The notes beneath the pieces were generated by a model. The model saw only the letters and a list, made by a program, of their open reading frames with translations, ran no database searches and was not told the DNA's origin. Source: Alphaproteobacteria bacterium (GTDB lineage Bacteria; Pseudomonadota; Alphaproteobacteria; MPNO01). Taken from it: a DNA stretch of 64,000 bases. The number at the start of each line of letters is the position of its first letter. Within the stretch, counting starts at the first letter, position 1. Positions 38,354 to 55,076 of this stretch are shown in pieces. The position numbers were made by a program, and so were the translations under genes. The DNA lies in the NCBI GenBank assembly GCA_965248835.1, contig CBDFLJ010000002.1:2080001-2144000 (forward strand). Reading direction: 5' to 3'.

Positions 38354-39518
38354 AAGCGTACTCTGTGCATAACTTGTCGGGGTCTTGAATGATGGACGCT
38401 GTCCCTCGGCGTGCAAAGAGGGATAAGCGCCGGCCCGTGCGATGTGCGATACCGACAAGGGTCAGCCGCGCCGACGGAACAGTTGCTCGGCCAAGTTGCC
38501 GAAATATTTCACGCCGCCGTCGGTCGCAAGGTCGGCGGCTAGAACGTCCCACGGCAATCCGGCAGTGATCGGTTTTCCGGCGCCAGCCGTCGGGACTCCC
38601 GGGAGCCATGCGGCGAGCTCCATCACCGTCTCCGGCTCGATGGTCTTGCCCGCGGTGATCTCGACCCCGTAGCCTGTCGGTAGCATCGCCTTGACAGATC
38701 GCATGGGCCGCATTGGGGAGGTCCGCGTGACGGTGCTTGAGGCGATGGAATATAACGCCCTGATGCGCGGGTTTTCCAAGCGGGAACAGACCATCGAACA
38801 GGTGGCGGGCTCCGTATTCGCCGAGAGGCGGCCAGACCAAACTTCCCTCACAAACGCGCAACCTAATGATGTGCCCGACACGGACGCAGAGAACGCGCAC
38901 CGGGGCGCACCGGGAAGTTACATTCGGGGTACGGAGCTTTTGCTCTCGTTGCGGCGCGGTTAAAACCCCCATCGACGTAAAAGACGCGGATAACCTGGTT
39001 GCGCTTGATCGTGGACGCGGGCGGAGGGGAGCCCGCCGGGGCATGGCGTCCGAAGCATCTCCTGCTGGCTTAACACGTCCGACCTCTGCTACAACAACCG
39101 GGTGGAGAAGAACGCCGCGGGCAAGATCCGGCCGATCAGCTTTTCTGGCAGCACGGTAAGCGGGACCTGGGTCGATGTCAGAGCTCACGAGGCGCGTTAC
39201 GAACTTTGCCGTGACATTTCGGGCGATATCTATTGCGAGAACGATCCGGAAGGCGGTGCGTTCACGGCGCCTTGAACATGCAAAACTGATAGACCGAAGA
39301 GCGGAGCGGATAAGGCTTACGCAACAACAGGCAGCCGCCGATCATTTGCGGCCCCGACCTGTCGGGGCGACGGCGGCGCCGCATGCAACGCGTCCGTCGG
39401 ATCCGGTCATCGGACCGAACGTCGGAGGCCGATCATCGGGCGGGGGCATCGCTCTCATCCCGGGCCTGGTTCTTAGCCAACTCTGCCGCGCTTCGGCTTC
39501 GGGCCCCGGGTGAGGAAG

Positions 39519-40925
39519 ATGAAACGGGTCGAGCTCCTGGCTGCGTCCTGTGTGGTGATGACGTGCTGCGCACTGTCGGCGCCCGCGGCCGGGGACGAGC
39601 ATGGCGGAGCGGAGGCTTCGCGCATGGAGCTGACGCTGGATGACGCGATCCGTCTGGCGCTGCGGAACAACCGGAGCCTGCTCGATGCACGCCTCGACCG
39701 CACCCTCGATGTGTTCGCGCTCGACGTGGCCGGCGACCGGTACCGCCCGAAGGCGAGCATCAGGTCGTCGGCGGACGCCGAGAGGGAAGGCGATCCGCGA
39801 GCGAACCTCTCCACCACAGGGAGCATCCGGGTTCCGACCGGCGGCGAGCTCACGCTAGGATGGCGGAAGCCCCTCGCAGGCGGAGGCAACGACTCCGGCG
39901 ATTACAGTCTGGGGTTCTCGCAGCCGCTGCTGAAGGGCTTCGGGATCGCGGTCGACACCGCTCCGCTGCGGATCGCCCGGCTCAGGGAGAAGATCAATAT
40001 CCTGAACTTCAGGGATGCGATCGCCGGGATCGTCGACTCGACGATCCGGAATTGGCGGGACCTGATCCGGGTGAACCGGCAACTGGAGATCGCCGAGGCG
40101 TCCCTCGAGAGGGCTCGGGAGCAACTGAAGGTCAACCGGACGCTGATCAAAGCGGGCCAGATGGCGGAGCGCGAAGTGCTCCAGAGCGAGGCGGAGATCG
40201 CCAACCGGGAGCTCTCGCTGGTGGAGGCGAGGAACGCTCTGATCGAGGCCAATTTCAATTTGATCGACACTCTGGACATCGATAGCGCGACCCTGATCCG
40301 CCCGCTGGAAACGCCGAGGGCTCGGCGGGCGGCGCCCGGCGTGGCGGAGGGCATCGAGGTGGCGCTGCGCAACGCGCCCGACTATTTGCAGGCGCTTCTG
40401 AACGCCGACATCGCCAGGATCGATCTGAAGGTCGCCGAGAACGACCGCCTCTGGGATCTATCGCTGGATACGGATGCGTCGCGTGCCGCCGGCGGCGGCC
40501 CGACCGACTATGCAGCGGGGCTGAGGCTGACGGTTCCGCTGTGGGACCGCTCCCCCCGCCAGGCATGGATGGGGGCCCGGGCCAGTGTCCGGAAGGCCGA
40601 GCGCGGCCTCGTGGAGCGGCGCCAGAAGATCGCCATCGACGTGCGCCAGGCGGTGCATAACGTCGTGGTCGGGCTGCGGCGGATCGAGCTTGCCCGTCAG
40701 GCGCTCGCACTCACGGAACAGAAGCTCGAGATCGAACGGAGCAAGCTGCGCCAGGGCCTGTCGTCAGCCTTCCAGTTGAGCCAGTTCGAAGACGACCTGG
40801 TGGCCGCGCAGAACGCCGAGGTGGACGCGGTCGTCAGCTACGAGAACGCGCTGACCTCGCTGGACCGGACCCTGGGCACGACGCTGGAGACATGGGACAT
40901 CCGCGTGGACCAGGTCGAGCGATGA
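39519..40925 (+). CDS. TolC-family outer membrane efflux protein
   Basis: Signal peptide, LTLDDAIRLALRNN, FSQPLLKGFG, two OEP-like helical repeats, LTVPLWD. Confidence 0.9.
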   Translation: MKRVELLAASCVVMTCCALSAPAAGDEHGGAEASRMELTLDDAIRLALRNNRSLLDARLDRTLDVFALDVAGDRYRPKASIRSSADAEREGDPRANLSTTGSIRVPTGGELTLGWRKPLAGGGNDSGDYSLGFSQPLLKGFGIAVDTAPLRIARLREKINILNFRDAIAGIVDSTIRNWRDLIRVNRQLEIAEASLERAREQLKVNRTLIKAGQMAEREVLQSEAEIANRELSLVEARNALIEANFNLIDTLDIDSATLIRPLETPRARRAAPGVAEGIEVALRNAPDYLQALLNADIARIDLKVAENDRLWDLSLDTDASRAAGGGPTDYAAGLRLTVPLWDRSPRQAWMGARASVRKAERGLVERRQKIAIDVRQAVHNVVVGLRRIELARQALALTEQKLEIERSKLRQGLSSAFQLSQFEDDLVAAQNAEVDAVVSYENALTSLDRTLGTTLETWDIRVDQVER

Positions 40926-42697
40926 CGGACCGCGGCGTGGACATCCGCGGGAGCGTCCTTGACAACCTGATGGACGGGGTCATGGTGGTCGAGCTCGGCG
41001 GCTCGATCGGGATGTTCAATCCGGCGGCGGGCCGCATTCTCGGCCTCTCTCCCGACGAGGTGGCGGGAAGGACGTTCGCGGAGCTGTTCATCGCCCGCGA
41101 GGGCTTCGACGAGTTCACCGAGCTCATCCTGGACGCCGTCGGGAACAGGGGCGAAGGCGGCCGGCAGGTGGTTGCCCTGCATGCCGGCGGCGAGGCGCGG
41201 TCGCTTTCGGTGGCGACCTCGTATCTCAGATCGACCCGCGACGGCGCCGTCGAGCCGGTCGCCGTGATCGCCGTGTTCAGCGACATCACCGAGGTCCGTG
41301 AACTGCGCGAGACCGAGCTGCGCATGGCCAAGGCGGCGGAGGCGCAGCACGCCGAGCTGCAGACGGCCTACCGGCAGATCGAGGAGCGTAACGAGACGCT
41401 GGCCGCGACGTTGAAGAAGGTCCAGGTGGCGCGGGTGCTGGCAACGGTCCTGGTGATCGGGGTATTCCTGGGGGCCGGGGTCTACACTTGGAAACCCCTC
41501 GACCTGTTCGGCGGCTCATCGACACCGGCCGTCGTGTCGTCGGCCGATGCCGGCGTTGGCGAAGGCCAGCGCACGATGGAGGTCGAGCCGCGGCCGGTGC
41601 GCACGACGATCTCGCTGGTGGGCAAGCTGGCGCCCTGGCGCAAGGTGAGCGTCACGAGCCCGGTCGAAAGCCGCATCGGGAAGGTGCACTTCCAGTACGG
41701 CCAGAAGGTCGTGAAGGGCACGCTTCTGGTTGAACTGGACATCGCCGAGACCAATCGCGAGTACCGCGAGGCCCGGGTTGCTTATATCGACGCGCTGAAG
41801 AAGTTCGAGGCCATCGAGGATTGGGAGAACGGCCCCGAGATGGCCGACGCCCGGCGGTCGTTCACCCGGGCGAAGCTGGAGCTCGAGAGTCAGGAGAACC
41901 GGCTGAAGCGGACCGCGTTCCTTCTGAAGCAGGGGCTGGTCGCCTCCTCCGAGCACGAGGACGCGCAGCGGCAATATCGGGGCCAGCAACTGGACGTCGA
42001 GGCGGCTCGGCAGGACTTCGAGGCGGCGCGGGCCAGGGGCGGTCAGGAGGCGCGGGACAAGGCCGAGCTGGAGCTGGGCATTGCCCGCGAGAAGATGCGC
42101 GAGCTCGAGCAGAGCCTGCAGCGGAGCGCGATCCATGCGCCGCTCACCGGCGTCGTCCTCGCGCCGGCCGGGGTCGGCGACAGCAGTCTCACCGCGGGCA
42201 AGTCGGTCGAGAGGGGCGGGGTGCTGCTGACGATCGGCGACTTCGCGCGCATCTCTGCGGTTACCAAGGTCGACGAGGTGGATGTTGTGCGAATCAAGGC
42301 CGGCCAGGCGGTTTCGGTCACCGGCAACGCCTTTCCCGGCTTGACGCTGGGAGGAATTGTGACCCACGTCTCGTCGCAGGCGGAGGCGCGGTCGCGGGGC
42401 GCGCCCGAGTTCAGCGTGGTCGTGACGCTCGATCCTCTCGAGGCTGCGCAGCAGGGGCGGCTGCGGGCCGGGATGTCGAGCAATCTGAAAATCGTGGTCT
42501 ACCGGAACGACACCGCCCTGCTGGTCCCGATCGACGCCGTGGAACGGCACGGCAGGAAGCACCGGTTGCGGGTGGTCGACCGGGAGACCGGCGAGGCGCG
42601 GGCGCGCGAGGTCGAGCTCGGCCCCACCACTCTGGACTCGGTCGAGATCGTCGCCGGCCTCAAGCCCGGCGACGAGATCGTGGTGCCGGCGAACTGA
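40922..42697 (+). CDS. Periplasmic adaptor (MacA/HlyD-like) with N-terminal PAS domain
   Basis: VLDNLMDGVMVV..FNPAAGRILGLS..AVFSDITE (PAS), coiled coil, one TM helix, then YGQKVVKG / IHAPLTGVV lipoyl halves, VDEVDV..IKAGQ, GMS, LLVPIDAV, GLKPGDEIV. Confidence 0.88.
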   Translation: MTDRGVDIRGSVLDNLMDGVMVVELGGSIGMFNPAAGRILGLSPDEVAGRTFAELFIAREGFDEFTELILDAVGNRGEGGRQVVALHAGGEARSLSVATSYLRSTRDGAVEPVAVIAVFSDITEVRELRETELRMAKAAEAQHAELQTAYRQIEERNETLAATLKKVQVARVLATVLVIGVFLGAGVYTWKPLDLFGGSSTPAVVSSADAGVGEGQRTMEVEPRPVRTTISLVGKLAPWRKVSVTSPVESRIGKVHFQYGQKVVKGTLLVELDIAETNREYREARVAYIDALKKFEAIEDWENGPEMADARRSFTRAKLELESQENRLKRTAFLLKQGLVASSEHEDAQRQYRGQQLDVEAARQDFEAARARGGQEARDKAELELGIAREKMRELEQSLQRSAIHAPLTGVVLAPAGVGDSSLTAGKSVERGGVLLTIGDFARISAVTKVDEVDVVRIKAGQAVSVTGNAFPGLTLGGIVTHVSSQAEARSRGAPEFSVVVTLDPLEAAQQGRLRAGMSSNLKIVVYRNDTALLVPIDAVERHGRKHRLRVVDRETGEARAREVELGPTTLDSVEIVAGLKPGDEIVVPAN

Positions 42698-42712: not shown

Positions 42713-43417
42713 GTGCTTCAGCTGCTGGACATCGAGAAGTCCTACAGGCTCGGGACCATGAACATCGAGGTCCTTCGCGGGGTCTGCCTGGAGGTGGCGA
42801 AAGGAGACCTGCTGTCGATCATGGGGCCTTCGGGAAGCGGCAAGTCGACGTTGATGAACATCATCGGGCTGCTGGGCCGCCCGACGGCGGGGTCGTATTT
42901 TCTGAACGGGCGCGACGTCCGGTCGATGAAGGACCGGGAGCTGTCGGCCTACCGCAACGCCAATATCGGCTTCGTGTTCCAGTCGTTCCAGCTGTTGGGG
43001 CACTTGACGGCGCTGGAGAACGTGGCCGTCCCGCTGGTGTACCGGGACATGGGCCGGGGCGAGATCCGGCGCCGGGCGCGGGCGATCCTGGAGAAGGTCG
43101 GCATGGGGGACCGCGCCGGGCACAAGCCGGACCAGCTATCCGGCGGGCAGAAGCAGCGGGTCGCGATCGCCCGGGCGCTGGTCGGCGAGCCCGCCGTGCT
43201 GCTCGCCGACGAGCCGACGGGGGCCCTGGATTCCGGCACCGCCGAGGAGGTCATGGAGCTGCTGACCCGGCTGAACGTCGAGGACCGGATCACGATCGTG
43301 ATCATCACGCACGACCCCTCGATCGCCCGGCAGTGCAGGCGGCAGACCCGGATCGACGACGGCGTACTGCATGAGATCGCGCAACCTCAGGACATAGGAA
43401 CGCGATGCGGCAGCTAG
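42713..43417 (+). CDS. ABC transporter ATP-binding protein (MacB/LolD type)
   Basis: GPSGSGKST, IGFVFQSF, LSGGQKQR, LLADEPTGALD, IITHD. Confidence 0.95.
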   Translation: MLQLLDIEKSYRLGTMNIEVLRGVCLEVAKGDLLSIMGPSGSGKSTLMNIIGLLGRPTAGSYFLNGRDVRSMKDRELSAYRNANIGFVFQSFQLLGHLTALENVAVPLVYRDMGRGEIRRRARAILEKVGMGDRAGHKPDQLSGGQKQRVAIARALVGEPAVLLADEPTGALDSGTAEEVMELLTRLNVEDRITIVIITHDPSIARQCRRQTRIDDGVLHEIAQPQDIGTRCGS

Positions 43418-44625
43418 GCCCCGCCCTGACAACCAACCTGCGGGAAGCGGCGCGCAGCCTTTACGGCGCCAGGCTGCGCACGCTCCTGGGGCTGATCGGC
43501 ATCATGATCGGGATCGCTTCGGTGATCACGATGATCTCGACGGGAGAAATCGCGACGGCCCAGGCGCGCAAGGAGTTCGAGGCGCTCGGCACCGATATCC
43601 TCACCATCCGCAAGTCCGACGACCTGATGACGGCGGAGGCCCGGCGGCGGGGGATCGCCATCGGCCTCGGCGACGCCCTGGAGGTCGCGGACGCGGTCCC
43701 GTCGGTCGCCGAAGCGGCGCCCCGGATCCGGTCGCAAGGCGGATTCGCCTATGCCGGCAAGCGTGTCGGCAACGGCGCCCTCCAGGGGGTGACGGCTTCC
43801 TTCGCGAGCGTGAACAAGCTGCGGGTGGCCGAGGGGCGGTTCGTGTCGGATTTGGATGTCGACCGCTATTACGGCGTGGTCGGCGCGGACATCGCAAACG
43901 CCATGCGCCGCCGCGGGGCGGGCGCGGTCGTCGGCAAGGTGCTGGAGATCGGCGGGCGCCTGTTCACGGTCGTAGGCGTGCTGGAGGCCAGGCCGGAGAG
44001 CTATGCGCTGCCGTTCCAGGTCGAGGCGAACGAGTCCGTGTTCGTGCCGATCACCACCGCGCGGCGGATTTCACCCCGTGCGGAGATCCAGCTGATCATC
44101 GCCCGCGTGCGGGCCGGCGTTCATTACTCGGCCGCCGCCCGGGACGTGCAGGCCTATTTCGGCAAACGGACCAGGGGGCTGGCGGTCGAGGTCACGAGCG
44201 CCGAACAACTGATCGAGCAGATGGAATCGCAGCTCGGCCTGATGACCCTTCTGCTCGGCGCGGTCGGCAGCATCAGCCTCATCGTCGGCGGCATCGGGGT
44301 CATGAACATCATGCTGATCTCTGTTGCAGAGCGGCGTCGGGAGATCGGGATCCGGCGCGCGCTGGGCGCCAGCCGCGGGGACATCCAGGGCCAGTTCCTG
44401 ATGGAGGCCGTCATCCTGACCTTGGGCGGGGGGATGGCCGGCCTGGTGTTCGGGACGGGGGCCACCTATGGGATCTGCCAGTTCACCAGTTGGGACTTTT
44501 TCATATCGCCGGTGTCCGTCATAGCCGGGATCGGCGTCTCGACCATCGCGGGCGTCTTCTTCGGCTTCCAGCCCGCCTATCAGGCGGCCCGCCTCGACCC
44601 GATCATCGCCCTGCAGGGAGGATAG
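43405..44625 (+). CDS. ABC transporter permease (MacB/FtsX type)
   Basis: LGLIGIMIGIASV, large periplasmic domain, VGGIGVMNIMLISVAERRREIGIRRALGA, PAYQAARLDPI. Confidence 0.95.
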   Translation: MRQLGPALTTNLREAARSLYGARLRTLLGLIGIMIGIASVITMISTGEIATAQARKEFEALGTDILTIRKSDDLMTAEARRRGIAIGLGDALEVADAVPSVAEAAPRIRSQGGFAYAGKRVGNGALQGVTASFASVNKLRVAEGRFVSDLDVDRYYGVVGADIANAMRRRGAGAVVGKVLEIGGRLFTVVGVLEARPESYALPFQVEANESVFVPITTARRISPRAEIQLIIARVRAGVHYSAAARDVQAYFGKRTRGLAVEVTSAEQLIEQMESQLGLMTLLLGAVGSISLIVGGIGVMNIMLISVAERRREIGIRRALGASRGDIQGQFLMEAVILTLGGGMAGLVFGTGATYGICQFTSWDFFISPVSVIAGIGVSTIAGVFFGFQPAYQAARLDPIIALQGG

Positions 44626-44707
44626 CGCGCCCGCGCGGCCCCCTCGGCGGCGCAGGACGGAGACTGGCTGCGAGGACGGCAGCGTGACGAAGCGCGCCCC
44701 TGACGCC

Positions 44708-45000
44708 AATCCGCATCCTCGCCGCCGGGCCGATCTCCGGACAGGTCTTCGCCGTCTTCCGGATCGCGTTCGGGCCTGCCGACGCTGCACGACATGGTGC
44801 ACGTCCTTTGGGTCGGCCGGCCGACCGGCTTCCATGTCGAGCGCGACATTTCCTTCCCGTATCAGGGGCTTGAGATCCCATGCCGTCCCGCCCCCGACTC
44901 CACTGGCTCCGGGCCGGGTGCGGGGTCTGCTGCCTGCGCGTCGCGCCGGGCGCTCTACCGTGCCGCCGTCCGGGGCTTCGACGTGGTAGATCGCCGGACG
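44708..45000 (+). pseudogene. Degraded 5' fragment of an HTTM-domain (vitamin K-dependent carboxylase-like) gene
   Basis: Across frameshifts: GPISGQVFAVFRIAFG, ISFPYQGLE, GALYRAA. Confidence 0.45.
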
Positions 45001-45051
45001 CAACCTCACATTGCTTCCGCGACCTGGCCCGCACGGCTTGCGGGTGTAAGC

Positions 45052-45080
45052 TTGACAGTGAGGCGCCGCTGCTGGACATT
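45052..45080 (+). promoter_or_regulatory. Conserved promoter of Cys-rich gene family (copy 1)
   Basis: TTGACA-N17-GACATT; TTGACA also at 46559, 47458, 49409-49414 (-) and 54311-54316 (-), upstream of every paralog. Confidence 0.65.
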
Positions 45081-45160
45081 CCCGGCAGCGTCAGGCGAGC
45101 AGGCCCACTGTCCGGCCCGTGCCATGGCGATGCCCCGGCACGGAACAGGAGGGTCCGAAA

Positions 45161-45733
45161 ATGAAGTGGAATGCAGACCCACGCGCTCTCGGCAGTGTTC
45201 GCGCTCGCCTTGGCGGCGGCTGCTTGCCGGTCAGGCTCACGCCGCCTGCGGAGGCAGCCAGAGAATAGATCACGACGACGTCAACTGCCTGGAGGCCGGT
45301 TGGACAAACCACAATTTTCCGATTAAGGGTGACGCCCATGCCCGGAGCCAATGCTCTGCATATGGAAGGGTTCGTCGTAAAGGTCGACAGAATATCTGGC
45401 AGCGACTGGACATGGCATTTGACCAGCAGCAGCACGAGAGAGGACAGCGGCGGTTACAAAATCAGGGAGATTTCCTGCTGTTCCGACCTGAGCGATCTCT
45501 GCGACACGTCGGACATGGACGACGACGGCTGCCTTGACAACTTCCGTAAGAGTAACGCGGATGATTCATGCAAGGATGAATCCGCCAGCTTCACTAGCCC
45601 CGACCAGTGCAGGATCGACGCGAGATGTATAGCGTGGAATCACTCCATTGAGCCGACAAACATCACCGTTCGCTATAAAGAAGTCCGAGATCTCCAAAAT
45701 TGTAATTCCGTTCTGACAGTCGGAGGGTGTTGA
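45161..45733 (+). pseudogene. Secreted Cys-rich protein, copy 1 (three +1 insertions)
   Basis: Compared with copy 2: extra bases at about 45175, 45221 and 45371; TAG at 45266 in the start frame; corrected product has all 12 Cys and ends NCNSVLTVGGC. Confidence 0.85.
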
Positions 45734-45815
45734 CTGACCCGGGGGTTCTGCGGCGGCCACCGGACTGATGTCCGGCGGCGGGCTCGAAAACATCGCGCCG
45801 CCGCACCGATCCTGA

Positions 45816-45962
45816 TCGCAGGATCACAGTCGTGATCGTCGCCGTGGCTGTATCGTCGTCATAATCCGTCACCCGATAGGTGTAGCTACCCGGTGTATCC
45901 GCGGTTGCGGTGTCGGACAGCACACGGGTGCCGGCGTCGAACGCCAGCCCGTCAGGCCCTCG
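45816..45962 (-). pseudogene. Fragment of a putative Ig (He_PIG / cadherin-like) domain
   Basis: PDGLAFDAGTRVLSDTATADTPGSYTYRVTDYDDDTATATITTVI. Confidence 0.6.
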
Positions 45963-46070
45963 GTGGAAACGCGCCTGCCGAAATGTCTTGCCCACCAACA
46001 GCCAACCAAACCCGACCGTCTCCTATGCCATGAACCAGGACATCGGATTGACACGGGCGCGCAACCCGAG

Positions 46071-46154
46071 CGGGCGCGCTATTCGCCCTGTAGAGCGACG
46101 ATCGGGTCGAGGCGAGCCGCCTGGTAAGCGGGCTGGAAGCCGAAGAAGACGCCC
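46071..46154 (-). repeat. Inverted, diverged copy of the 3' end of the MacB-type permease gene
   Basis: Reverse complement encodes GVFFGFQPAYQAARLDPIVALQGE-stop followed by cgcgcccg, matching 44550-44633. Confidence 0.92.
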
Positions 46155-46986
46155 CTGACGCGCATCCGCATCCTCGCCGCCGGGCCGATCTCCGGACAGG
46201 TCCTCGCCGTCTTCCGGATCGCGTTCGGTCCTGCCGACGCTGCACGACATCGTGCACGTCCTTTGGGCCGGCCGGCCGACCGGCTTCCATGTCGAGCGCG
46301 ACATTCCCTTCCCGTACCGGAGGCTTGAGGTTCCGCCCATGGCGCCCCCTGACTCCACCGGCTCCGGGCCGGTGCGGGGTCTGCTGCCTGCGCGTCGCGC
46401 CGGGCGCTCTACCGCGCCGCCGTCCGGGGCTTCGACGCGACCTTCATCTACTTCTTCCTCCGCGGCCAGATACTCTACCGCAACCATCTCTACATGATCG
46501 CCGGGCGCAACCTCACATTGCTTCCGCAACCTGGCCCGCACGGCTTGCGGGTGTAAGCTTGACAGTGAAGCGCCGCTGCTGGACATTCCCGGCATCGCCA
46601 TGGCACGGAACAGGGGGTCGGAAAATGAAGTGGAATGCGACCCAGGCGGTCTCGGCGGTGTTCGTGCTCGCATTGACGGCGGCGCTTGCCGGTCAGGCCC
46701 ATGCCGCCTGCAGCGAAGGCCAGAGAATAGATCACGAGGACGTCAACTGCCTGGAGGCCGGTTGGACAAACCACAATTTTCCGATTAAGGGTGACGCCCA
46801 TGCCCGGAGCCAATGCTCTGCATATGGAAGGGTCGTCGTAAAGGTCGACAGAATATCTGGCAGCGACTGGACATGGCATTTGACCAGCAGCAGCAAGAGA
46901 GAGGACAGCGGCGGTTACAAAATCAGGGAGATTTCCTGCTGTTCCGACTTGAGCGATCTCTGCGACACGTCGGAAATGGACGACGA
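46151..46986 (+). repeat. Segmental duplication, copy B
   Basis: Matches 44696-45525; keeps an extra segment encoding TFIYFFLRGQILYRNHLYM (HTTM-like). Confidence 0.9.
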
Positions 46987-47221
46987 TTCGTGCCTCGACC
47001 GGTTCCGGGCCAGCGCCGCGGGTGAGACATGCGAGGATGTATCCGCCAGCATCAATGGCGACCAAGAGTGCACGATCAACGCACAGTGTGAAACTTACAT
47101 ACGGCATAGTTTGGCGAGTGAACCTCAGAGGTGGATGGTGTCGGCAAGCACCACCGTGAGTTGGCGCGACGTTAAAGATCTCCGCAATTGCAAGGGCGAG
47201 CTGAAAGTCCGACGGTGTTGA
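46625..47221 (+). CDS. Secreted Cys-rich protein, copy 2 (198 aa, 12 Cys)
   Basis: MKWNATQAVSAVFVLALTAALAGQAHA signal peptide (AHA site); motifs VVVKVD, WTWHL, CCSDLSDLC, DLRNCKGELKV. Confidence 0.88.
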   Translation: MKWNATQAVSAVFVLALTAALAGQAHAACSEGQRIDHEDVNCLEAGWTNHNFPIKGDAHARSQCSAYGRVVVKVDRISGSDWTWHLTSSSKREDSGGYKIREISCCSDLSDLCDTSEMDDDSCLDRFRASAAGETCEDVSASINGDQECTINAQCETYIRHSLASEPQRWMVSASTTVSWRDVKDLRNCKGELKVRRC

Positions 47222-47537
47222 CTGACCGGGAGGTCTGCGGCGGTCACTGTTCTGACGCCCCGCTTCTCCACGAACCCGCCCGATTGCGGGGAAAGAAGGC
47301 GCTCGCTCAAAACAGGATATAGCGCGTCAATTCGAGCGAAATAACCGCCGGTGATGCTGCAGCAGCATCGTGCGAAGCCCTCGATCGGCCGTGCCGGGCG
47401 CCGCATGTGCGCTGCCCGACGGCGCCGTACGGGCATCCTTAACCTTCCCGCACAGCCTTGACAGTTGCGCGCCGCCGCCGGAGAGTCCCGGCGATGGGCA
47501 GGTGAACGCCCCGGCCACTGAGCAGGAGGATCCGAAA

Positions 47538-48140
47538 ATGAATTGGAATGCAGCCCATGCGGTCTCGGCGGTGTTTGCGCTCGCATTGACGGCGGTGCTT
47601 GCCGGTCAAGCCCATGCCGGCTCCTGCGAAGGCAGCGACAGAATAGACCGCGACGACGCCGAATGCCTGGACGCCAATTGGAATAATCGTAAGGATTTGC
47701 TGAGCAGAGGCGAAGTTTGGGCAACGAACAAATGCTCCGACTACGGAACGGTTGTCGTGAAGGTCGATATAAAAAGCGCCAAGGACAAAACGTGGCATCT
47801 GGACCATGGCAATAAGAAGAAGGAAGGCACGGGCCTTTTCGATACCAGGAGTGTTTCCTGCTGCGCGGATCTGAGCGATCTCTGCAACAAGTCGGACTTA
47901 GCCAATGTCGATTCGTGCGTTGATCGTTGGAGGTACAGCTCGGCGAATGAGTCCTGCATCGATACATCCGTCGCCGTCAATGACGACCTAGAGTGCGTGT
48001 TCACCTCGCGGTGTCGCAATTTGGATGGGGATCGTAATTCGTCAACCATAGCCGCGAGCTGGCCCGACACGGTAGATCTCCACAACTGCGATGGCGTTCT
48101 GAGACTTGTGAAATCCGGGTCGTGTCCCGGTTCGAACTGA
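47538..48140 (+). CDS. Secreted Cys-rich protein, copy 3 (200 aa, 12 Cys)
   Basis: RBS AGGAGG; MNWNAAHAVSAVFALALTAVLAGQAHA; VVVKVD, TWHL, CCADLSDLC, DLHNCDGVL. Confidence 0.9.
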   Translation: MNWNAAHAVSAVFALALTAVLAGQAHAGSCEGSDRIDRDDAECLDANWNNRKDLLSRGEVWATNKCSDYGTVVVKVDIKSAKDKTWHLDHGNKKKEGTGLFDTRSVSCCADLSDLCNKSDLANVDSCVDRWRYSSANESCIDTSVAVNDDLECVFTSRCRNLDGDRNSSTIAASWPDTVDLHNCDGVLRLVKSGSCPGSN

Positions 48141-48371
48141 TCGAAAGCGCTGTCGGTCTTTCGCGGCGCGTTTTCTCTTGTCACCCCGGCTCTCCGCTGC
48201 GCGCCGTCCGGGGTGACAAACGGGGGGGGGTCAGCCAGCCGGCGCTATGCCGGGCGGCCCGGCCAAGCCCCGGACCGGAGACCGGGGCGGCAAGTCGGGC
48301 CTGTCGAGGGCGTATCGGGACCGGCCAAGGGACCGCGGATTTCGAACCGGGACACGACCGAAATCTGGAGC

Positions 48372-48410
48372 GTGTTGACTGACCCGGCGTTCTGCGGCGG
48401 CCACCGGAGT
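48372..48410 (+). repeat. Orphan copy of the family's stop codon and 3' tail
   Basis: gtgttgactgacccggcgttctgcggcggccaccgg matches the ends of copy 1 (about 45727-45763) and copy 2 (about 47215-47250). Confidence 0.75.
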
Positions 48411-48737
48411 GGTACCCCGCGGCGCGACGAACCCGACTCGATTACAAGGAGGAAGCGCCAATCAGGTGAGATAGCCGGCAGCGAAGCCGCGGCAGCGTCG
48501 CGGGAAGCCCTCGCGTTGGCCGTGCCGGCCATCCACGGCCCAGGTTGTGCAGGGCGCCGCGCAGGCGCTGTCCGGTGGAGAGATCGACGGTCTCAAGGCG
48601 AATGCCGAGCCCCGCCCTCGGGCGCATTCGACCGATGGCGCGACGCCCGCGCCGAGGAGGTCGACTTCTTCCGGCCCCGCCAGGCCCTCGGCCTTCAAAC
48701 CACCGTCAAGCTGATATCCCCGTCGCGCGCGTGACGC

Positions 48738-49294
48738 TTACCGGGGCGAAAGGCACTCTCCTCCAACGTGCAGATCGCCCGTACAGTTGTCGGGATTTGC
48801 GGTGTCGGACCAGCTCACGGTTACATGTGTCAGTCGATTGACCCCGTGCCCGCACGTATCCAGCATGCATTTTACCGCATCCCGCAATTGATCACGCACT
48901 CATCGCGCCGTTGATGCTGGAGGATGAATCAATCGTAGTCGAGGTCGGACCTGTTGCAAAGATCGCTCAGGTCCGTGCAGCGGTAAACCCGGTTGATCTT
49001 GTAATTGCTTTTGATTTCTCTCGTCTCTCTGCTCGGCAAATGCCGCGTGTAGTCTCGGGCACCCTCCATGTCGAGCTTTGCGGCGACCTTTCCGAGGCCC
49101 GAGCATAGGTCCCAGGCTCTGACGGCGTTCGGGTGCGCCGATGTCTCGTTTTTTCACTCGGCGCGCAGGCATTCCGAGCCCCAGCAGCTCGTTCTCTGGC
49201 CGCCGCCGCAGGCGGCATGGGCCTGAGCGGCAAGCGCCGCCGTCAAGGCGAGCGCGAACACCGCAGAGACCGCATGGGTTGCATTCCACTTCAT
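48738..49294 (-). pseudogene. Secreted Cys-rich protein, copy 4 (nonsense and deletion lesions)
   Basis: MKWNATHAVSAVFALALTAALAAQAHAAC..; TGA in place of conserved Trp at 49154-49156; second stop at 48929-48931; distal VTVSWSDTANPDNCTGDLHVGGEC. Confidence 0.85.
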
Positions 49295-49906
49295 TTTCAG
49301 GTCCTTCAGCTACGTGCTGGGTCATCGCCGTGGCACAAGCCGGACAGCGAGCGTGCGTCCGCGCCGCTCATGTGCCGTCGCCGGGACATTTTCCAGGCAG
49401 CGCGTACCTGTCAAGCCCGCACCCTCGCGACGCGCGGGCGTGGCCGCACGACGCAGTCAGGGCTTGGGCGGGCGCGAGCCGGTGCATGCGATCCGCCACG
49501 GGCTGCGGTCAGGCGATGGGCCGCGAGCATGCCGAACGACAGGCCGGTCAGTCCGCCGAGGTCATCGGCAGCCAGACGATGAAACCGCTGGCCGCAAGCG
49601 TCATTTGGCAGTGGATATCGCCCGCGCATGGCCGACGTCCGGCAGCAATCCGGTGATCGTATCACGGTCAAAACAGGAAAACACGCCCACCGTCAGAACC
49701 TCATGACGCGTGGCAAGCGCGTTCGCCGTCACACTGTCGAACCTGTCAATGTCACACGACAGACACTACAATCGAACAGGCATCCGGTTCCGGATATGCC
49801 GGGTCAGGACGCGAGGCTCCCCCACGGTGGTGCGGCAGCCGCCCAGCGCATCCCTTCCGGATGATAAGCCATCTTCTGTGCTTGTGGTTCAGCAAGTGTT
49901 GCGGAC

Positions 49907-52900
49907 ATGCCTGATTTCAATGCCGCGAAGAATTCAGGGCCGGGAGACCGGACGCTGCACCAGATTTCGGGACGGAATCGGAAAACGTCGAGAGCGATCC
50001 TCGTCTGCCTGATCAGTGGGTTTCTCTCAGTCGGCGCGGCCTGCCTTGCCGAATCGGCGGCCACGGCCGGAGGTGGACAGAGCGGTTTCGTGGATATCAC
50101 TGCCGCGCTCGGTCTCGACTACCATGTGAAATCCGATCCGGAAGGAGAGGAAGCGGAGACGGACGGTCCAGACAGGGAGAATGGAGGCCTGGCGCTTGTC
50201 GACATCGACAATGACGGCAGGCTCGAACTCTACGTCGCGCACGGACGCGGCGAGACGGGCCGGCTGTTCAGCTACGACGGCAGCCGGTTCACGCGGCTCG
50301 CCGGCAATCGGGGCATCGAGCCGACGAGGATGGATCGTGCGGGATATTTCATCGATCTCGACCATGACGGCCGGCAGGACTTCGTGTCGGTCCAGTCGCG
50401 AGGCGTGGAAGCGTTCCGAAACGATGGCACGGGACAGTTCGTTGAGACGACGGGCCTGTTCGGCATCCGGCACGACAGAAGCACCCACTCGATGGCCGCC
50501 GCCGACATCGACAATGACGGTGACCTCGACCTGTTCTTCGCGCACTGGGGGAACATCTGGAACAGGTTCAGGCCGCCCTCGCACTATCTCTGGCGCAACG
50601 ACGGCAGGGGGCGCTATGCGGACATCAGCCACGTCGTGCCAATTCGCCCCACCGTGCATTATGAATTGGAAGGAAGCGCGCAGGACCCCTCCTACGAATA
50701 CTCCTTCACACCGACATTCGCGGATATCGACGCCGACGGGGATCCCGACATTCTGCTGGCAGGTGATTTCGGCTCCAGCCAGATCCTGCGGAACGAGGCC
50801 GGCACGGCGTTCGTCGACACAGGCGGCGGTGCGATCACCGACGAGAACGGCATGGGCGCCGCGGTCGGAGACTACGACCGGGACGGCGACCTGGACTGGT
50901 TCGTGACCAGTATCCATGACGCGGACGGCAATTCCGGCTTCGGCCCGACCGGAAATCGACTTTACCGCAATATCGACGGAACCGGCCGGTTCAAGGACGC
51001 GACCGAAGACGCAGGCGTGCGCGAGGGCGGCTGGGCCTGGGGCACCTGCTTCGCGGACTTCGACAATGACGGTCATCCGGACCTGTTCCAGACCAATGGC
51101 TGGTTCGGCGAATACATCGACGATGCCGAGGGCGAGTCCGTCGAGGTCACCGAGTTCCTGGAGGATCCGTCGCGGTTGTTCATGTCCAACGGCGACGGAA
51201 CATTCACCGAGCGCGCGTCCGAGCTCGGCATCCGTCATTCGGGCCAGGGGCGCGGTGTCGTGTGCCACGACTACGACGGCGACGGCAGGGTGGACATTTT
51301 CATCGCAAACAACGCCGCCGCGCCGACCGTCTATTCCAACGTCTTCGAGAACAACCACCATTGGCTCGCGATCGACCTGGTCGGCCGGTATGCGAACCCG
51401 CACGGGATCGGCGCGCGAGTCACCGTCCGCACGGCATCCGGCAATCAGATGCAGGAGATGCGACTCGGCAGCGCGTACCTGTCCCAGGCTCCTCCGATCC
51501 TCCACTTCGGCCTGGGCCGCGACCGGACGGCGGCCGTGATCGAGGTGCGGTGGCCCGGCCCCGGCAACCAGGTCAGCCGGCTGGAGAACGTCATCGCGGA
51601 CCGGCGCCTGACCATCCGTCAACCGGCGCCCGCCGGCTTTGCGCTCGGCGTCGTGGACGGCGCCGGCGGCGGCCTCCATGGCGAAGGCACGACGATCTCG
51701 ATCAAGGCGGCCGAACCCGCGAGAAACCATAGTTTCAGCCACTGGACCAGCGAAGGAGGCGGCGCGTTCGGCGATGCGCGGTCGCCAGAAACCACCTTCA
51801 CGATGCCCGCGAACCCGGTGACGGTGTTCGCCCATTTCCCGCCCGGACCGCCGCCGTCCAAGGCGGGCGTCTCGGTCGCGAGACGCTGGATCGAGGTGAT
51901 GCTGCAGGCGATCCGCGACGATTTCGCCCGCCCGACGGTCCATGCCCGCAACCTCTTTCATCTCTCGGCCGCGATGTACGACGCCTGGGCCGCGTATTCG
52001 GAATCCGCCAAACCCTACCTGCTCGGCGACGCCGACGCCGCGTGCATTCCCACGAGCGTCCCGCCCGCCGGCGATGTCCGGCGTGCCGCACAGGAGGAAG
52101 CGATCAGCCACGCCGCCTGGCGCATCGTCCGGCATCGCTTCCGGCAGTCGCCGAATGCCCGTCGCACCCGGAAGAACGCCGATACCCTGATGTCCGCCCT
52201 GGATTACGACACCGGTGCCGGGTTCGCGGGTACGGCGATCCGACCGGCCGCGGGCCTGGGCAAATGCATCGGCGAGTTCTATATCGCCCGCGGCCTGACG
52301 GACGGCTCGAACGAAGCGAATGCCTACCGGGCAGAAAATTATCGCCCCGTCAATCCGTCCATGGAACCGTACGACCCGGGCAATCCTGAATTGGAAGATC
52401 CCGACCGCTGGCAACCGTTGTCGCTGGGCCGGTTCGTCGATCAGTCGGGTTTCCTGATCGCGACCGGCGCTTCCGATTTCGTGACGCCCGAATGGGGCCG
52501 CGCGGCGCCGTTCGCGCTGACCGGGGACGATCTGACCGTCCATCAGCGGGACGGCGCCGCGTATTACGTCTATCACGACCCGGGGCCGCCGCCGAGCTTC
52601 CGCGGTCCGCTCGCCGACCTCTACAAATGGGGGTTTTCCCTGGTCGCCCTATGGTCGTCGCAGCTGTCGCCGGAGGACGGCGTGCTGATCGACATCGCGC
52701 CGTCCGGTATCGGCAACATCCGCGCCTTGCCCCGCAGGTTCGAGGACCATGTCGATTTCTACGACTCCGGTGCCGGAGGCCCGGGCCACGGGATCAACCC
52801 GGCAACCGGCAAGGCCTATGAACCCCAGTTGGTGCCCCGGGGCGACTATCTCCGCGTGCTGGCGGAATTCTGGGCCGACGGACCCGACTCCGAAACGCCC

Positions 52901-53710
52901 CCCGGCCACTGGTTCGTGATCCTGAACACGGTCAACGACCATGAGCTGCATGTCAGGCGGTTCGGCGGCGAAGGCCCCGAGCTCGGCGCCCTGGAATGGG
53001 ACGTCAAGGCCTACTTCGCCCTGGGCGGGGCCATGCACGACGCCGCCATCGCCGCCTGGGGGATCAAGGGCTGGTACGACTATATCCGGCCGATCTCGGC
53101 CCTGCGGGCCATGGCCGAGCGCGGGCAATCGAGCAATCCGGCGCTGCCCTCCTGGTCCGCCGACGGCATCCCGCTGGTCGAGGGATCGATCGAGCTGGTC
53201 GGTCCCGACGATCCTCTTGCCGGCGAACACGGCGAGCACGTCGGCGAAATCAAGCTACGTGCGTGGCGCGGCCCCGACTTCATCGACGATCCCGCGGCCG
53301 ATGCGGCCGGGGTCGGCTGGATCCTTGCCGGGAACTGGTGGCCCTATCAGCGGCCGTCCTTCGTCACGCCGCCGTTCGCCGGCTACGTGTCCGGCCATTC
53401 GACCTACTCGCGGGCGGCCGCGGAGGTGCTGACCGCGCTGACCGGCGATCCCTTTTTCCCCGGAGGCATGAGCGAATTCGAAATCACCGCGAACGACTTC
53501 CTGGTGTTCGAGCGCGGCCCCTCCGTCGACATGACCCTGCAGTGGGCGACCTACCGCGACGCCGCCGACCAGTGCAGCCTGTCGCGCATCTGGGGCGGCA
53601 TCCATCCGCCGGCCGACGACATTCCGGGGCGTCTCATCGGCGCCAGGATAGGCCTCGATGCCTTCAGCTTCGCGAAATCCTATTTCCGGCCGCTGCCGCC
53701 CCGCCGTTAG
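49907..53710 (+). CDS. Secreted FG-GAP/CRTAC1 beta-propeller plus ASPIC/UnbV domain fused to a vanadium-dependent haloperoxidase-like domain
   Basis: Repeated DxDxDGxxD motifs, GIGARVTV..HFGLG..IEVRWP (UnbV), then KGWYDYIRP, PPFAGYVSGHS and SRIWGGIH vanadate/phosphate-binding motifs. Confidence 0.88.
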   Translation: MPDFNAAKNSGPGDRTLHQISGRNRKTSRAILVCLISGFLSVGAACLAESAATAGGGQSGFVDITAALGLDYHVKSDPEGEEAETDGPDRENGGLALVDIDNDGRLELYVAHGRGETGRLFSYDGSRFTRLAGNRGIEPTRMDRAGYFIDLDHDGRQDFVSVQSRGVEAFRNDGTGQFVETTGLFGIRHDRSTHSMAAADIDNDGDLDLFFAHWGNIWNRFRPPSHYLWRNDGRGRYADISHVVPIRPTVHYELEGSAQDPSYEYSFTPTFADIDADGDPDILLAGDFGSSQILRNEAGTAFVDTGGGAITDENGMGAAVGDYDRDGDLDWFVTSIHDADGNSGFGPTGNRLYRNIDGTGRFKDATEDAGVREGGWAWGTCFADFDNDGHPDLFQTNGWFGEYIDDAEGESVEVTEFLEDPSRLFMSNGDGTFTERASELGIRHSGQGRGVVCHDYDGDGRVDIFIANNAAAPTVYSNVFENNHHWLAIDLVGRYANPHGIGARVTVRTASGNQMQEMRLGSAYLSQAPPILHFGLGRDRTAAVIEVRWPGPGNQVSRLENVIADRRLTIRQPAPAGFALGVVDGAGGGLHGEGTTISIKAAEPARNHSFSHWTSEGGGAFGDARSPETTFTMPANPVTVFAHFPPGPPPSKAGVSVARRWIEVMLQAIRDDFARPTVHARNLFHLSAAMYDAWAAYSESAKPYLLGDADAACIPTSVPPAGDVRRAAQEEAISHAAWRIVRHRFRQSPNARRTRKNADTLMSALDYDTGAGFAGTAIRPAAGLGKCIGEFYIARGLTDGSNEANAYRAENYRPVNPSMEPYDPGNPELEDPDRWQPLSLGRFVDQSGFLIATGASDFVTPEWGRAAPFALTGDDLTVHQRDGAAYYVYHDPGPPPSFRGPLADLYKWGFSLVALWSSQLSPEDGVLIDIAPSGIGNIRALPRRFEDHVDFYDSGAGGPGHGINPATGKAYEPQLVPRGDYLRVLAEFWADGPDSETPPGHWFVILNTVNDHELHVRRFGGEGPELGALEWDVKAYFALGGAMHDAAIAAWGIKGWYDYIRPISALRAMAERGQSSNPALPSWSADGIPLVEGSIELVGPDDPLAGEHGEHVGEIKLRAWRGPDFIDDPAADAAGVGWILAGNWWPYQRPSFVTPPFAGYVSGHSTYSRAAAEVLTALTGDPFFPGGMSEFEITANDFLVFERGPSVDMTLQWATYRDAADQCSLSRIWGGIHPPADDIPGRLIGARIGLDAFSFAKSYFRPLPPRR

Positions 53711-53824
53711 TCGCGGCGTTTGCGGTCCTCGGGCAGGCGCTGTCGGGCGATAGCTCCCATCAATTGGCATTGAGACTGCGCATTGATCACGCACTCGTCG
53801 CCGCCATTGAAGCTGGCGGTTGCA

Positions 53825-54196
53825 CTAATCGTCGTCAACATCCGACCTGTTGCAGAGATCGCTAAGATCCTTGCAGCAGTGAACCCCCTCGACATTGAAG
53901 AAGCGGGTGTTTCTTTTCTTCTCATTACCGTGGTCCAAATGCCATGTGTAGTCCGTGGCATTCACTAAGTCGACCTTTACTACGACCGTACCAAGGTTCG
54001 AGCACTGGTTCTGGGCTTTAACTTCACCATGGCTCAGCCAATTTATACTGTTGTCCCACTCGGCGCGCAGGCAGTCGGCGTTATCGTGGCCGATTCTCTG
54101 GCCGATGCCGCAGGCGGCATGGGCCTGACCGGCAAGCGCCGCCGCCAATGCGAGCGCGACCACCGCCGAGACCGCATATGCTGCATGCCACTTCAT
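53825..54196 (-). CDS. Secreted Cys-rich protein, copy 5 (N-domain only, 123 aa, 6 Cys)
   Basis: RBS GGAGG; MKWHAAYAVSAVVALALAAALAGQAHAAC; VVVKVD, YTWHL, CCKDLSDLC; out-of-frame C-domain remnant (SFNGGDECVINAQ) downstream. Confidence 0.8.
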   Translation of the reverse strand: MKWHAAYAVSAVVALALAAALAGQAHAACGIGQRIGHDNADCLRAEWDNSINWLSHGEVKAQNQCSNLGTVVVKVDLVNATDYTWHLDHGNEKKRNTRFFNVEGVHCCKDLSDLCNRSDVDDD

Positions 54197-54313
54197 TTTC
54201 CGATCCTCCGGTTCCGTGCAGGGGCATCGCCATGGCACAGGCCGGACAGCGGGCCTGCTCGCGCGGTGCTCACCTGCCGCTGCCGGAAATCTTCGACAGT
54301 GGCGCGTCACTGT

Positions 54314-55076
54314 CAAGCCAATGTCGGGTTCGGAACATGGAGGACGGTGGTTTGGATTTCTCATGGAATCGCACCATGAGCAACTTGGTGGACTGTGATC
54401 GGGAGCAGGCGTTTCTGCTTCCTCCCGATCTGCGGGACCGGGTCCCGGAGGATGATTTGGCGCATTTCGTGATCGAGGCGGTCGAGCGCGTCGATCTGGG
54501 CGCCTTCAAGGTGAACCATCGTGGCACGGGCTCGGCGCAACATCACCTCCGGATGACGCTGGCCCTGCTGATCTACTGCTATGCCAATGGGATCTTCTCC
54601 AGCCGCCGGACGAGACGCCGGGTCCGGACGAGCGGAGCAATTCGAGCGGCCCGGACAGCCGGCTGATGCGCAAGAGCAACCAGCACGCGTATCGCCAAGC
54701 CTACAACGCGCAGGCGGTGGTGGATGCCGGCGGCAGTCGGTTGATCGCGAACGCGCGGATCAGCCAATGCGCCGGCGACCGCAACGAACTGGTGGCGGAT
54801 ATCGCGGCGATGCCGGCGCCGCCGGAGGCGAGCGGCATCGAAGCCTTGGTGTCGACCGCCGCGAGTAGCTCTCGCCTACAACTGCAAGCGCTTACACGAG
54901 CCGAGCCTGGCGACGTGAAGCACCCCGGTGGAGCATGTCGCGACAGAGCAAGGGCGGCCACGCTGCGAGACGCCGCCGAACCGGCAAACGGACTCTATCG
55001 AGAAGAAACCGACGCCAACTCAGCCCAGCAACAAAACCGTACGCGATCGATGAACCAAAGCCCGACGGACCGCTAG
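54314..55076 (+). mobile_element. Internally deleted IS1182-family element
   Basis: MSNLVDCDREQAFLLPPDLRD..DDLAHFVIEAVE..ALLIYCYANGIFSSRR from ATG 54376, and LMRKS..YRQAYNAQAVVD; right end ..cccgacggaccgctag; left end approximate. Confidence 0.8.

Follow-up and report, generated by a model that had tools for sequence, protein, structure and literature searches.

We analysed a stretch of 64,000 nucleotides (nt) from an Alphaproteobacteria bacterium (NCBI GenBank assembly GCA_965248835.1, contig CBDFLJ010000002.1, positions 2,080,001 to 2,144,000 of the forward strand; hereafter the window) that carries five copies of a gene family for small, cysteine-rich proteins next to the genes of a predicted MacB-type efflux pump. 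The mature proteins are built from two kinds of module, an N module of ~90 amino acids (aa) and a C module of ~70-80 aa, each with 6 cysteines. The explanation that we favour, and to which we give about an even chance on the basis of sequence, structural models and analogy, is that these are modular, disulfide-rich proteins exported by Sec, expelled by the MacB-type pump, binding glycans or other surfaces and spreading among sponge symbionts. An initial annotation of the window had recognised the five paralogs and overlooked the reach of the family beyond the window, its restriction to sponge-associated genomes, the predicted lectin-like character of the C domain and the recurrence of a MacB-type pump beside the family genes.

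Under this explanation, the family proteins would pass the inner membrane by way of Sec, acquire their disulfides in the periplasm and be expelled across the outer membrane by the adjacent pump, domain by domain, with the two-domain forms passing as two beads on a flexible linker. Outside the cell their targets would be glycans or other surface molecules, either of the sponge host or of microbes nearby. Their repertoire would turn over by duplication, by the decay of copies, by episodic positive selection and by recombination in the promoter-leader DNA and the CCSDLSDLC linker, and would spread horizontally among sponge symbionts of different phyla. We infer export by the pump from its linkage to the family genes and from analogy with known exporters, and the binding of host or microbial glycans or surface molecules from the structural models described below.

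Linkage to a MacB-type pump and proposed spread among sponge symbionts

Four genes immediately upstream of copy 1 would, by their domain content, supply all four parts of a MacB-type tripartite efflux pump (Table 1). All four are also found within a few kilobases (kb) of family genes in six other genomes (loci L019, L027, L028, L040, L041 and L042), so that the pairing occurs in seven genomes including that of the window. The placement of the pump relative to the family genes varies by locus (upstream, downstream, divergent or split), as do the flanking members, which are C-only in L042 and mostly N-only in L041. One genome (G003), with six paralogs of the PAS-adaptor, has six paralogous pumps, of which four to five have a family gene within ~5 kb, and both pumps of the metagenome-assembled genome (MAG) of the cyanobacterium Aphanocapsa feldmannii (G001) lie beside family genes; no pump match was found in G005. 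Among 61 relatives, we found the family in 10, the PAS-HlyD adaptor in 5 and the gene for a 1267-aa protein, which in the window lies between copies 4 and 5, in 3; these sets are nested, the three genomes with the 1267-aa gene holding both family and pump. Homologs of this gene (61-78% identity) stand beside family genes at L024:6752-10570, L028:6850-10416, L040:12064-18089 and L041:6811-10380, and the protein of the window is 78% identical to that of an A. feldmannii contig. The gene is split in two in L040.

The related genomes are not independent, so no p-value is given for the linkage, which we argue instead from the survival of the association through rearrangement and paralogy. Given this recurrent adjacency, the family proteins look like cargo of the pump. 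According to the available text of a review of such pumps, MacB-type pumps take their substrates from the periplasm, and their known protein cargoes are dispersin, CexE and the enterotoxin STII, dispersin measuring 10 kDa and 20 A in width (PMC5985334). As the single modules of the family are of dispersin size and follow a predicted Sec leader ending in AHA, a route by Sec, periplasmic disulfide folding and expulsion by the pump is likely.

The family is almost confined to sponge-associated genomes among those searched, to which all our statements on habitat refer. It was found in none of 300 other Alphaproteobacteria, sampled across the class (254 genera), and in none of 300 sampled other Cyanobacteria, the phylum of A. 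feldmannii. The named holders are three Alphaproteobacteria MAGs, one Rhodobacterales MAG, 'Candidatus Azophilus lithoversatilis' and A. feldmannii 277cV (11/17 loci). A profile search of the A. feldmannii MAG returned 40 family matches in 2.5 Mb, and those on contigs C84, C1 and C60 share their contigs with phycobilisome genes and are thus not bin contaminants. A run labelled as sponge metagenome contained near-identical pieces of the region, 34 of them at 99% or above.

Base composition and synteny are consistent with horizontal transfer. Gene GC is below flank GC in all 17 foreign loci (for instance, 0.556 vs 0.705), and in the genome of the window the GC at third codon positions is ~0.70 for the family vs 0.8-0.9 for neighbouring genes. 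In the complete genome of a congener (G007), neither the family nor the PAS-HlyD adaptor nor the 1267-aa gene was matched. The synteny of G007 with the window ends right after dxs (window 38353-39510; L057; dxs 87% identical in protein), and nothing in the window from 38.4 to 64 kb was matched in the next 18.6 kb of G007, where the GNAT gene of the window has no match either. For other symbiosis genes, the available text of the A. feldmannii genome paper invokes transfer from Alpha- and Gammaproteobacteria that occur together with the cyanobacterium, which it describes as living inside host bacteriocytes; in that text the terms 'cysteine', 'secreted' and 'signal peptide' each occur 0 times, and it makes no mention of the family (PMC6506613).

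Predicted domain folds and extent of the family

Pfam and NCBIfam gave no match for the three window proteins P0001-P0003, and hence no characterised housekeeping family, which the initial annotation had named as evidence that would count against it. A word-based search of 5.8 billion proteins returned 21 matches, and an exhaustive profile search returned 578 clusters from metagenomes at E<=1e-3, 284 at <=1e-10 and 81 at <=1e-30. The MKWNA..LAGQAHA leader is confined to the nearest ~40 members, the others having ordinary, varied signal peptides. The architectures among 174 family proteins were NC (120), N (43), C (4), NCC (3), NCCC (1) and four to five C modules in a row (3). In addition, 125 proteins of 450-1434 aa begin with an NC module and nearly all of these carry Calx-beta domains, one with an autotransporter domain as well; among 20 long members scanned, 10 have Calx-beta following NC, which places the NC module at the tip of ~800-aa Calx-beta proteins. 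The sources named for these long proteins are 'Defluviicoccus sp.' and 'Alphaproteobacteria bacterium' MAGs only. Against PDB sequences, a profile search returned 4 rows, all weak and unrelated (best E=0.019), and the ESM Atlas gave no usable match. Literature searches and term searches within the A. feldmannii genome paper, whose supplements they did not cover, found no description of the family. As far as searched, then, the family is new in its single-repeat CVNH-like module, its combination with a pump and its spread across phyla in sponge symbionts, while multigene secreted families under diversifying selection and MacB-type protein exporters are known kinds.

The genome-wide search for the leader DNA that the initial annotation had proposed found nine occurrences in this genome (81-93% identity), five in the window and four at C2:820779, C2:850966, C2:851776 and C2:2384058. 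A profile search of the genome further identified three tandem C-domain-only genes with a different signal peptide (C2:495676-496917) and family fragments at C2:851709-852353 and C1:32315. The three C-only genes (L013:1417-2655) encode proteins of 108-110 aa with 8 Cys and the signal peptide MRFA..AQGAQA, and sit between transposase genes and a phage-type integrase. Other family loci of this genome (L035-L039) contain transposases of several insertion sequence (IS) families (DDE_Tnp_1_4, DUF4096/DDE_Tnp_1, DDE_3, DUF772), some of them split, which suggests an IS-rich genome with gene decay.

Structural models point to a fold for each module. The AlphaFold2 model of mature copy 2 (mean predicted local distance difference test score, pLDDT, 86.7) has two domains joined by a low-confidence linker, and a second, independent model of a natural C-only protein reaches pLDDT 95-98 over the C domain. 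The Foldseek comparison that had been suggested for such models gave no PDB match at E<=0.001 for either, and the rows returned for the C-only model were mostly CVNH lectins at E>=0.1. In an exhaustive structural search, the top match of the N domain was tendamistat (1bvn_T; Z 6.7, root-mean-square deviation (rmsd) 3.0, 65/71 residues), followed by de novo and Ig-like sandwiches at Z 6.1-5.0. One of 90 members matches the Pfam family A_amylase_inhib (PF01356) at E=0.0027, below the gathering level; none of P0001-P0003 does. We regard the N domain as a probable Ig-like beta-sandwich, and its likeness to tendamistat as only a lead.

For the C domain, the same search returned four CVNH lectins at Z 5.5-6.2 with the copy 2 model. 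With the C-only model, CVNH chains, these same ones among them, took ranks 1-5 of 48,161 (Z 6.8, 6.7, 6.0, 6.0 and 4.1, the fifth being microvirin), the next unrelated chain standing at 4.0; the top four aligned over 50-55 residues at rmsd 2.0-2.7, the CVNH repeat being a three-stranded sheet plus a hairpin. A single profile comparison, chosen beforehand, of a 20-row C-domain alignment with 14 true CVNH domains from cyanobacterial genomes gave a probability of 84.6% (hhalign, E=6.8e-6, 45 columns, 31% identity), with the C domain aligning to the second CVNH repeat (profile columns 53-97). From models and profiles we conclude that the C domain is probably a divergent single CVNH-like repeat, outside Pfam CVNH as defined. 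When two copies of residues 24-110 of the C-only P0027 were modelled together, the prediction lent a homodimer no support (score 0.00). In the A. feldmannii MAG (L056:306-2528, on contig G001:C29), we also observed an N-only family gene (124 aa) with two tandem genes for genuine secreted CVNH lectins (171 and 172 aa) immediately upstream of it.

Structure, state and evolution of the five copies

The five copies share an upstream module of ~110 nt, a signal-peptide leader of 81 nt and mature domains framed by Cys. In an alignment of the five loci the start context GAAAATG is invariant and the upstream module, which begins GCTTGACAG, is conserved; ~45 nt of it are missing in copies 2 and 3. The pattern TTGACA ... 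GAAAATGAA occurs at all five copies and at no other site in the window, with 0 matches expected by chance (100 window shuffles), which bears out the five starts and the constant upstream DNA and leader of the initial annotation. The upstream DNA is thus a conserved module opening with a -35-like hexamer. Its annotation as a promoter holds less well: owing to a -10 region of GA.ATT, the five TTGACA sites all went uncalled in a scan for sigma-70 sites and terminators, which elsewhere found 1 promoter-like site vs 1.9 expected, so that a promoter role is suggested by the conserved sequence and not by the scan. The module is also present at loci L018 and L025 of Alphaproteobacteria MAGs and absent from the cyanobacterial loci. 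A 39-nt stretch at G000:C1:638290-638327, outside any family copy, is 85-90% identical to part of it.

The leader consensus M(K/N)W..A.SAV..LAL.A.LA.QAHA and the motifs VVVKVD, TWHL and CC.DLSDLC were present as the initial annotation had read them, including the degenerate versions in copy 4 (KVAAKLD, YTRHL and RCTDLSDLC). It was also right that the list of open reading frames uses wrong starts: copies 2 and 3 are begun too early there, at 46289 and 47370. Read directly, the leader has the features of a typical Sec signal peptide, ending in AHA with A as the predicted first mature residue. We rejected a lipoprotein reading on the same direct inspection; the leader ends in LAGQAHA followed by (A/S/G)C, there is no L-x-x-C, and the Cys lies at +2 or +3. 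An Rfam scan of 44000-55000 gave 0 matches at E<=1. A further conserved element of 42-64 nt, GTGTTGACTGACC.GG..TCTGCGGCGG.CAC..., occurs at 45739-45780, 47215-47278 and 48372-48435, after the stops of copies 1 and 2 and ~230 nt past copy 3, with 71-83% identity between copies.

Table 1. Family copies and neighbouring genes in the window
Feature	Positions	Strand	TTGACA	ATG	TTGACA to ATG (nt)	Description
Copy 1	45052..45733	+	45052	45161	109	Upstream module 45052-45160; two-domain gene; three 1-nt insertions
Copy 2 (P0001)	46559..47221	+	46559	46625	66	Short upstream module 46559-46624; intact gene 46625-47221, 198 aa, 12 Cys
Copy 3 (P0002)	47458..48140	+	47458	47538	80	Upstream module 47458-47537; intact gene 47538-48140, 200 aa, 12 Cys
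Copy 4	48738..49414	-	49414	49294	120	Upstream module 49295-49414; decayed gene; C-domain remnant 48738-48899 in other frame
Copy 5 (P0003)	53707..54316	-	54316	54196	120	Upstream module 54197-54316; N-domain-only gene 54196-53825, 123 aa, 6 Cys
TolC-like outer-membrane factor	39510..40925	+				Pfam OEP E=1.6e-39; NCBIfam TolC family E=2.8e-20, below cut-off
HlyD/MacA-like periplasmic adaptor, N-terminal PAS	40892..42697	+				Pfam HlyD_D23 (1.4e-12), HlyD_3, PAS; NCBIfam RND_mfp 121.9 bits vs cut-off 94.9
MacB-type ABC ATPase subunit	42713..43417	+				Pfam ABC_tran E=2.6e-33; best NCBIfam MacB E=1.1e-71, below cut-off
MacB-type permease	43405..44625	+				Pfam MacB_PCD E=3.1e-33, FtsX E=3.2e-22; NCBIfam MacB E=7.5e-56, below cut-off
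1267-aa FG-GAP/ASPIC-UnbV + DUF6851 + vanadium-haloperoxidase-like (VCPO/PAP2) protein	49907..53710	+				Pfam

Among the neighbours of the copies, the adaptor carries at its N-terminus a cytoplasmic PAS domain (residues ~20-140), which is unusual in pump adaptors.

Copies 2 and 3 have open frames with all of their cysteines, and copy 5 is single-domain, as annotated. Of the two copies that had been called broken, copy 4 is indeed decayed, with two in-frame TGA codons (including a W-to-TGA change), loss of a Cys (CC to RC) and a stop at the domain boundary. Copy 5 has a vestigial C domain in another frame (53707-53824). As copies 4 and 5 both have ~47 nt deleted at the domain boundary and stop at the same position, the N-only form is older than their duplication. 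It is also a natural form, given P0040 from another source, which is likewise 123 aa long, and the N-only members counted above.

The state of copy 1 is less clear. Against copy 2 it has 1-nt insertions at ~45176, ~45218 and ~45372, but the one at 45218 is missing from every covering contig of runs X1 (depth 74.9 of 74.9) and X3 (21.1 of 24), which cover ~80% of the region and possibly stem from the source sample, and an intact 189-aa version of the gene (P0004) exists in another assembly. The X1 and X3 contigs may be copy-2 contigs misassigned to copy 1, since the two copies are 95% identical there. Conversely, P0021, whose contig has the same listed length as that of P0004 (19,395 bases), is a version of copy 3 broken after CCADL. 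The broken state of copy 1 may therefore be strain-specific or partly an assembly error, and either strains differ in which copies are on or off, or every assembly contains errors of its own. The DNA alignment revealed no phase-variable repeat at the frameshift sites. Apart from this, the X1 and X3 contigs show, relative to the window, a 17-nt deletion at 46054 as well as clusters of substitutions at 47027-47256 and 48078-48666. Some of these sites also differ between X1 and X3, a sign that the sample may contain several strains.

The initial annotation proposed birth-and-death evolution, and several lines of evidence support this: a tandem duplication, broken and truncated copies, fragments elsewhere in the genome, and shuffling of N and C domains. 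Copies 1 and 2 form a 1.46-kb tandem repeat that includes upstream DNA. Between them, at 46066-46154, the 3' end of the macB permease gene (44550-44638) is repeated in inverted orientation (89 nt, 90% complementary), probably as a scar of the copy-1 duplication event. The N domains of copy 1 (as P0004) and copy 2 are 93% identical and starred as sisters, against ~46% identity between their C domains. This sisterhood is rejected by the C-domain data (approximately unbiased (AU) test, p=0.0165), and the C tree's pairing of copy 2 with P0007 is rejected by the N-domain data (p=0.00085); these tests of shuffling are weakened by the naming of the groups after the trees had been seen. A second candidate case, the seven C domains of P0010-P0017, is unproven, as a single clade was not rejected (AU p=0.34).

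Conservation among the copies of this genome is concentrated in two islands, the leader (0.79-0.91 identity) and the CSDLSDLC..CLDRF linker (0.73-0.82), with 0.40-0.68 in the rest. The leader is kept even at silent sites, the median proportion of synonymous differences (pS) being 0.31 for the leader and 0.56 for the N domain (66 pairs) and 0.61 for the C domain (55 pairs). Likewise, a tandem pair of A. feldmannii has a synonymous divergence (dS) of 0.046 in the leader vs 0.33 in the mature part, and the leader DNA is 77-90% identical between phyla. The most economical idea is that the leader DNA serves as a recombination anchor, which would explain its extreme conservation in the nearest subfamily.

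For the strong divergence between the Cys positions that had been annotated, dN/dS was the proposed check. Two close pairs have an excess of amino-acid change: the tandem pair at C2:850-852 kb (o850/o851), with 2.5 synonymous (Sd) vs 46.5 nonsynonymous (Nd) differences over 163 codons (p=0.00055; omega, the dN/dS ratio, 3.5-5.4 by four methods), and copy 1 with its L018 counterpart (Sd 2.3 vs Nd 30.7, 119 codons, p=0.024, omega 2.7-4.1). A third close pair has omega 1.3-1.8 (p=0.09). Selection is not uniformly positive, however, with omega 0.22 for the A. feldmannii tandem pair, 0.77 for the L028 N domains and 0.1-0.4 for distant pairs with saturated dS. The comparison of copies 4 and 5 was left out, as the two were misaligned (17% identity). 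These mixed values imply that positive selection is episodic and not general. A diversity-generating retroelement was considered as the cause and rejected, since the substitutions are not biased to adenine: the 49 o850/o851 differences fall across all base classes and both domains, and no reverse transcriptase was found among the proteins scanned. On sequence grounds, the pattern is compatible with the reading as effectors or recognition proteins that had been offered initially.

Competing explanations and comparison with known systems

Several results weigh against the proposal of pump-exported, glycan-binding proteins. The two-domain forms, at 18 kDa, exceed the ~10 kDa that the available text on MacB-type pumps gives as a possible upper bound (PMC5985334). 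Two genomes (G002 and G004) have one pump each without an adjacent family gene, four other family loci of the genome of the window lie among transposases without such a pump nearby, and the linkage could stem from co-transfer on one island rather than from a cargo relation. With respect to the folds, all Z-scores are below 8, the level of typical noise for the tool, and the Foldseek E-values are 0.1 or more. The Pfam CVNH model (PF08881) was reached by 0/90 members even at E<=10, whereas true CVNH genes scored 42-90 bits, and sugar binding is not assured because the C domain has one repeat where CVNH has two. Finally, positive selection at p<0.05 was found in two pairs only, with omega 0.1-0.8 in other pairs.

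One competing explanation is that these are Sec-dependent antibacterial proteins, bacteriocin-like and possibly lectin-like, directed at competing sponge microbes, with the pump serving for release and perhaps self-protection. Such proteins have precedents in the lectin-like bacteriocins and in lactococcin 972, which is Sec-dependent and has an ABC partner, and the multiple gene copies, horizontal spread and omega above 1 in close pairs would fit an arms race between antagonists. The ATPase also resembles, in each case below cut-off, the bacteriocin-export ABC group TIGR03608 (E=4.5e-57) and DarD, which exports darobactin (E=4.5e-66). We nevertheless consider this explanation unlikely, as no small immunity-like partner gene is evident beside the copies in the window, a Pfam bacteriocin family was matched in 0/90 members, and the NC modules that head ~800-aa Calx-beta proteins (125 matches) have an adhesin-like look. 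Moreover, the largest expansion of the family (40 matches) is in a symbiont that the available text of its genome paper places within host cells, in bacteriocytes (PMC6506613).

The linkage itself might have a different meaning, with the pump, the 1267-aa gene and the Cys-rich genes being passengers of one mobile island that have no functional tie; the proteins would then have their site of action in the periplasm or at the surface of the cell that makes them, and the substrate of the pump would be something else, for example a small halogenated metabolite. The island is patchy and its parts are co-absent from the congener G007, where synteny ends right after dxs, many family copies are far from any pump, and a haloperoxidase-like enzyme beside an efflux pump suggests a small-molecule route. 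The linkage, however, persists through several gene orders, for N-only, C-only and NC members alike, and holds for four to five of the six paralogous pumps of one genome, which simple hitch-hiking does not predict, making this explanation in our view distinctly unlikely. We judge it very unlikely that the proteins are secreted inhibitors of host or microbial hydrolases (glycosidases, lysozymes or proteases), with a tendamistat-like N domain whose variable loops track their target enzymes. Although tendamistat is the best fold match of the N domain, 1/90 members matches A_amylase_inhib, and a small disulfide-stabilised sandwich with hypervariable inter-Cys stretches would fit, tendamistat does not stand out from generic Ig-like sandwiches (Z 5-6) and the Pfam match is below cut-off in that one member. 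The W-R-Y triplet is the contact motif of tendamistat, and the family consensus is without it; the C domain would also be left unexplained.

We keep to the proposal of Sec-exported, pump-expelled and glycan- or surface-binding proteins as the preferred one. It is an open question how sponges distinguish their resident symbionts from the bacteria that they feed on, and the candidate symbiont factors so far are mostly eukaryote-like repeat proteins. The present family is a large unannotated set of predicted secreted proteins, expanded to ~40 matches in a 2.5-Mb intracellular cyanobiont and shared across phyla, and both its proposed export route, which is a concrete one, and its proposed activity, glycan binding, can be tested. 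If the proposal is true, MacB-type pumps would gain a further class of protein cargo, the second and a widespread one, and the one-, two- and multi-domain members would form a natural series for finding out how large a cargo such pumps can move. A bolder extension, which we hold to be doubtful, is that of a hitherto unrecognised secretion module of animal symbionts: a MacB-type pump dedicated to fast-evolving, lectin-like 'bead' proteins, encoded on an island exchanged between Alphaproteobacteria and a cyanobacterium of the same sponges. The proteins might coat or signal to host cells and help to decide between digestion and retention, and the nearly invariant promoter-leader and linker DNA might be the recombination anchors of a domain-swap cassette system of surface variation.

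Families that combine a constant 5' end with a variable mature part are known from the conotoxin superfamilies and from the Vlp/Vsp lipoproteins of Mycoplasma. As in these, the 5' untranslated region or promoter and the signal peptide are kept at silent sites while the mature parts diverge and omega can exceed 1. Unlike Vlp/Vsp, the family has no lipobox and no phase-variable repeat at its frameshift sites; unlike both, its hosts are bacterial symbionts of sponges and its wider membership has ordinary, variable signal peptides. With CVNH lectins, the predicted C domain has in common the strand-turn pattern ..I.L..I.N.dG.L / ..ITV..V.dL.NC.G.L, but it has one repeat and not two, ~70-80 aa vs the pseudo-symmetric ~100 aa, together with an extra N-terminal helix and six Cys. 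The likeness to tendamistat (PF01356) lies in a small disulfide-braced beta-sandwich of similar size.

The closest parallels for the proposed export are the Aat system for dispersin (Aap) of enteroaggregative E. coli, CexPABC for CexE and MacAB-TolC for STII, in which, according to the available text, a MacB-type ABC transporter with a separate ATPase, an adaptor and a TolC-like duct moves a folded protein of ~10 kDa or smaller outward (PMC5985334). In contrast to these systems, the putative cargo described here, which is unrelated to theirs by sequence (no Pfam family), is multi-copy, disulfide-rich and often two-domain, and the adaptor carries a PAS domain. An AatD-like acyltransferase was not found among the 16 window proteins scanned, and the GNAT gene at 55737-56660 lies outside the conserved island. 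As in these systems, all four pump parts are present and encoded beside small proteins with predicted Sec signal peptides, and the single N or C modules are, like dispersin itself, of a size that such a pump is known to move.

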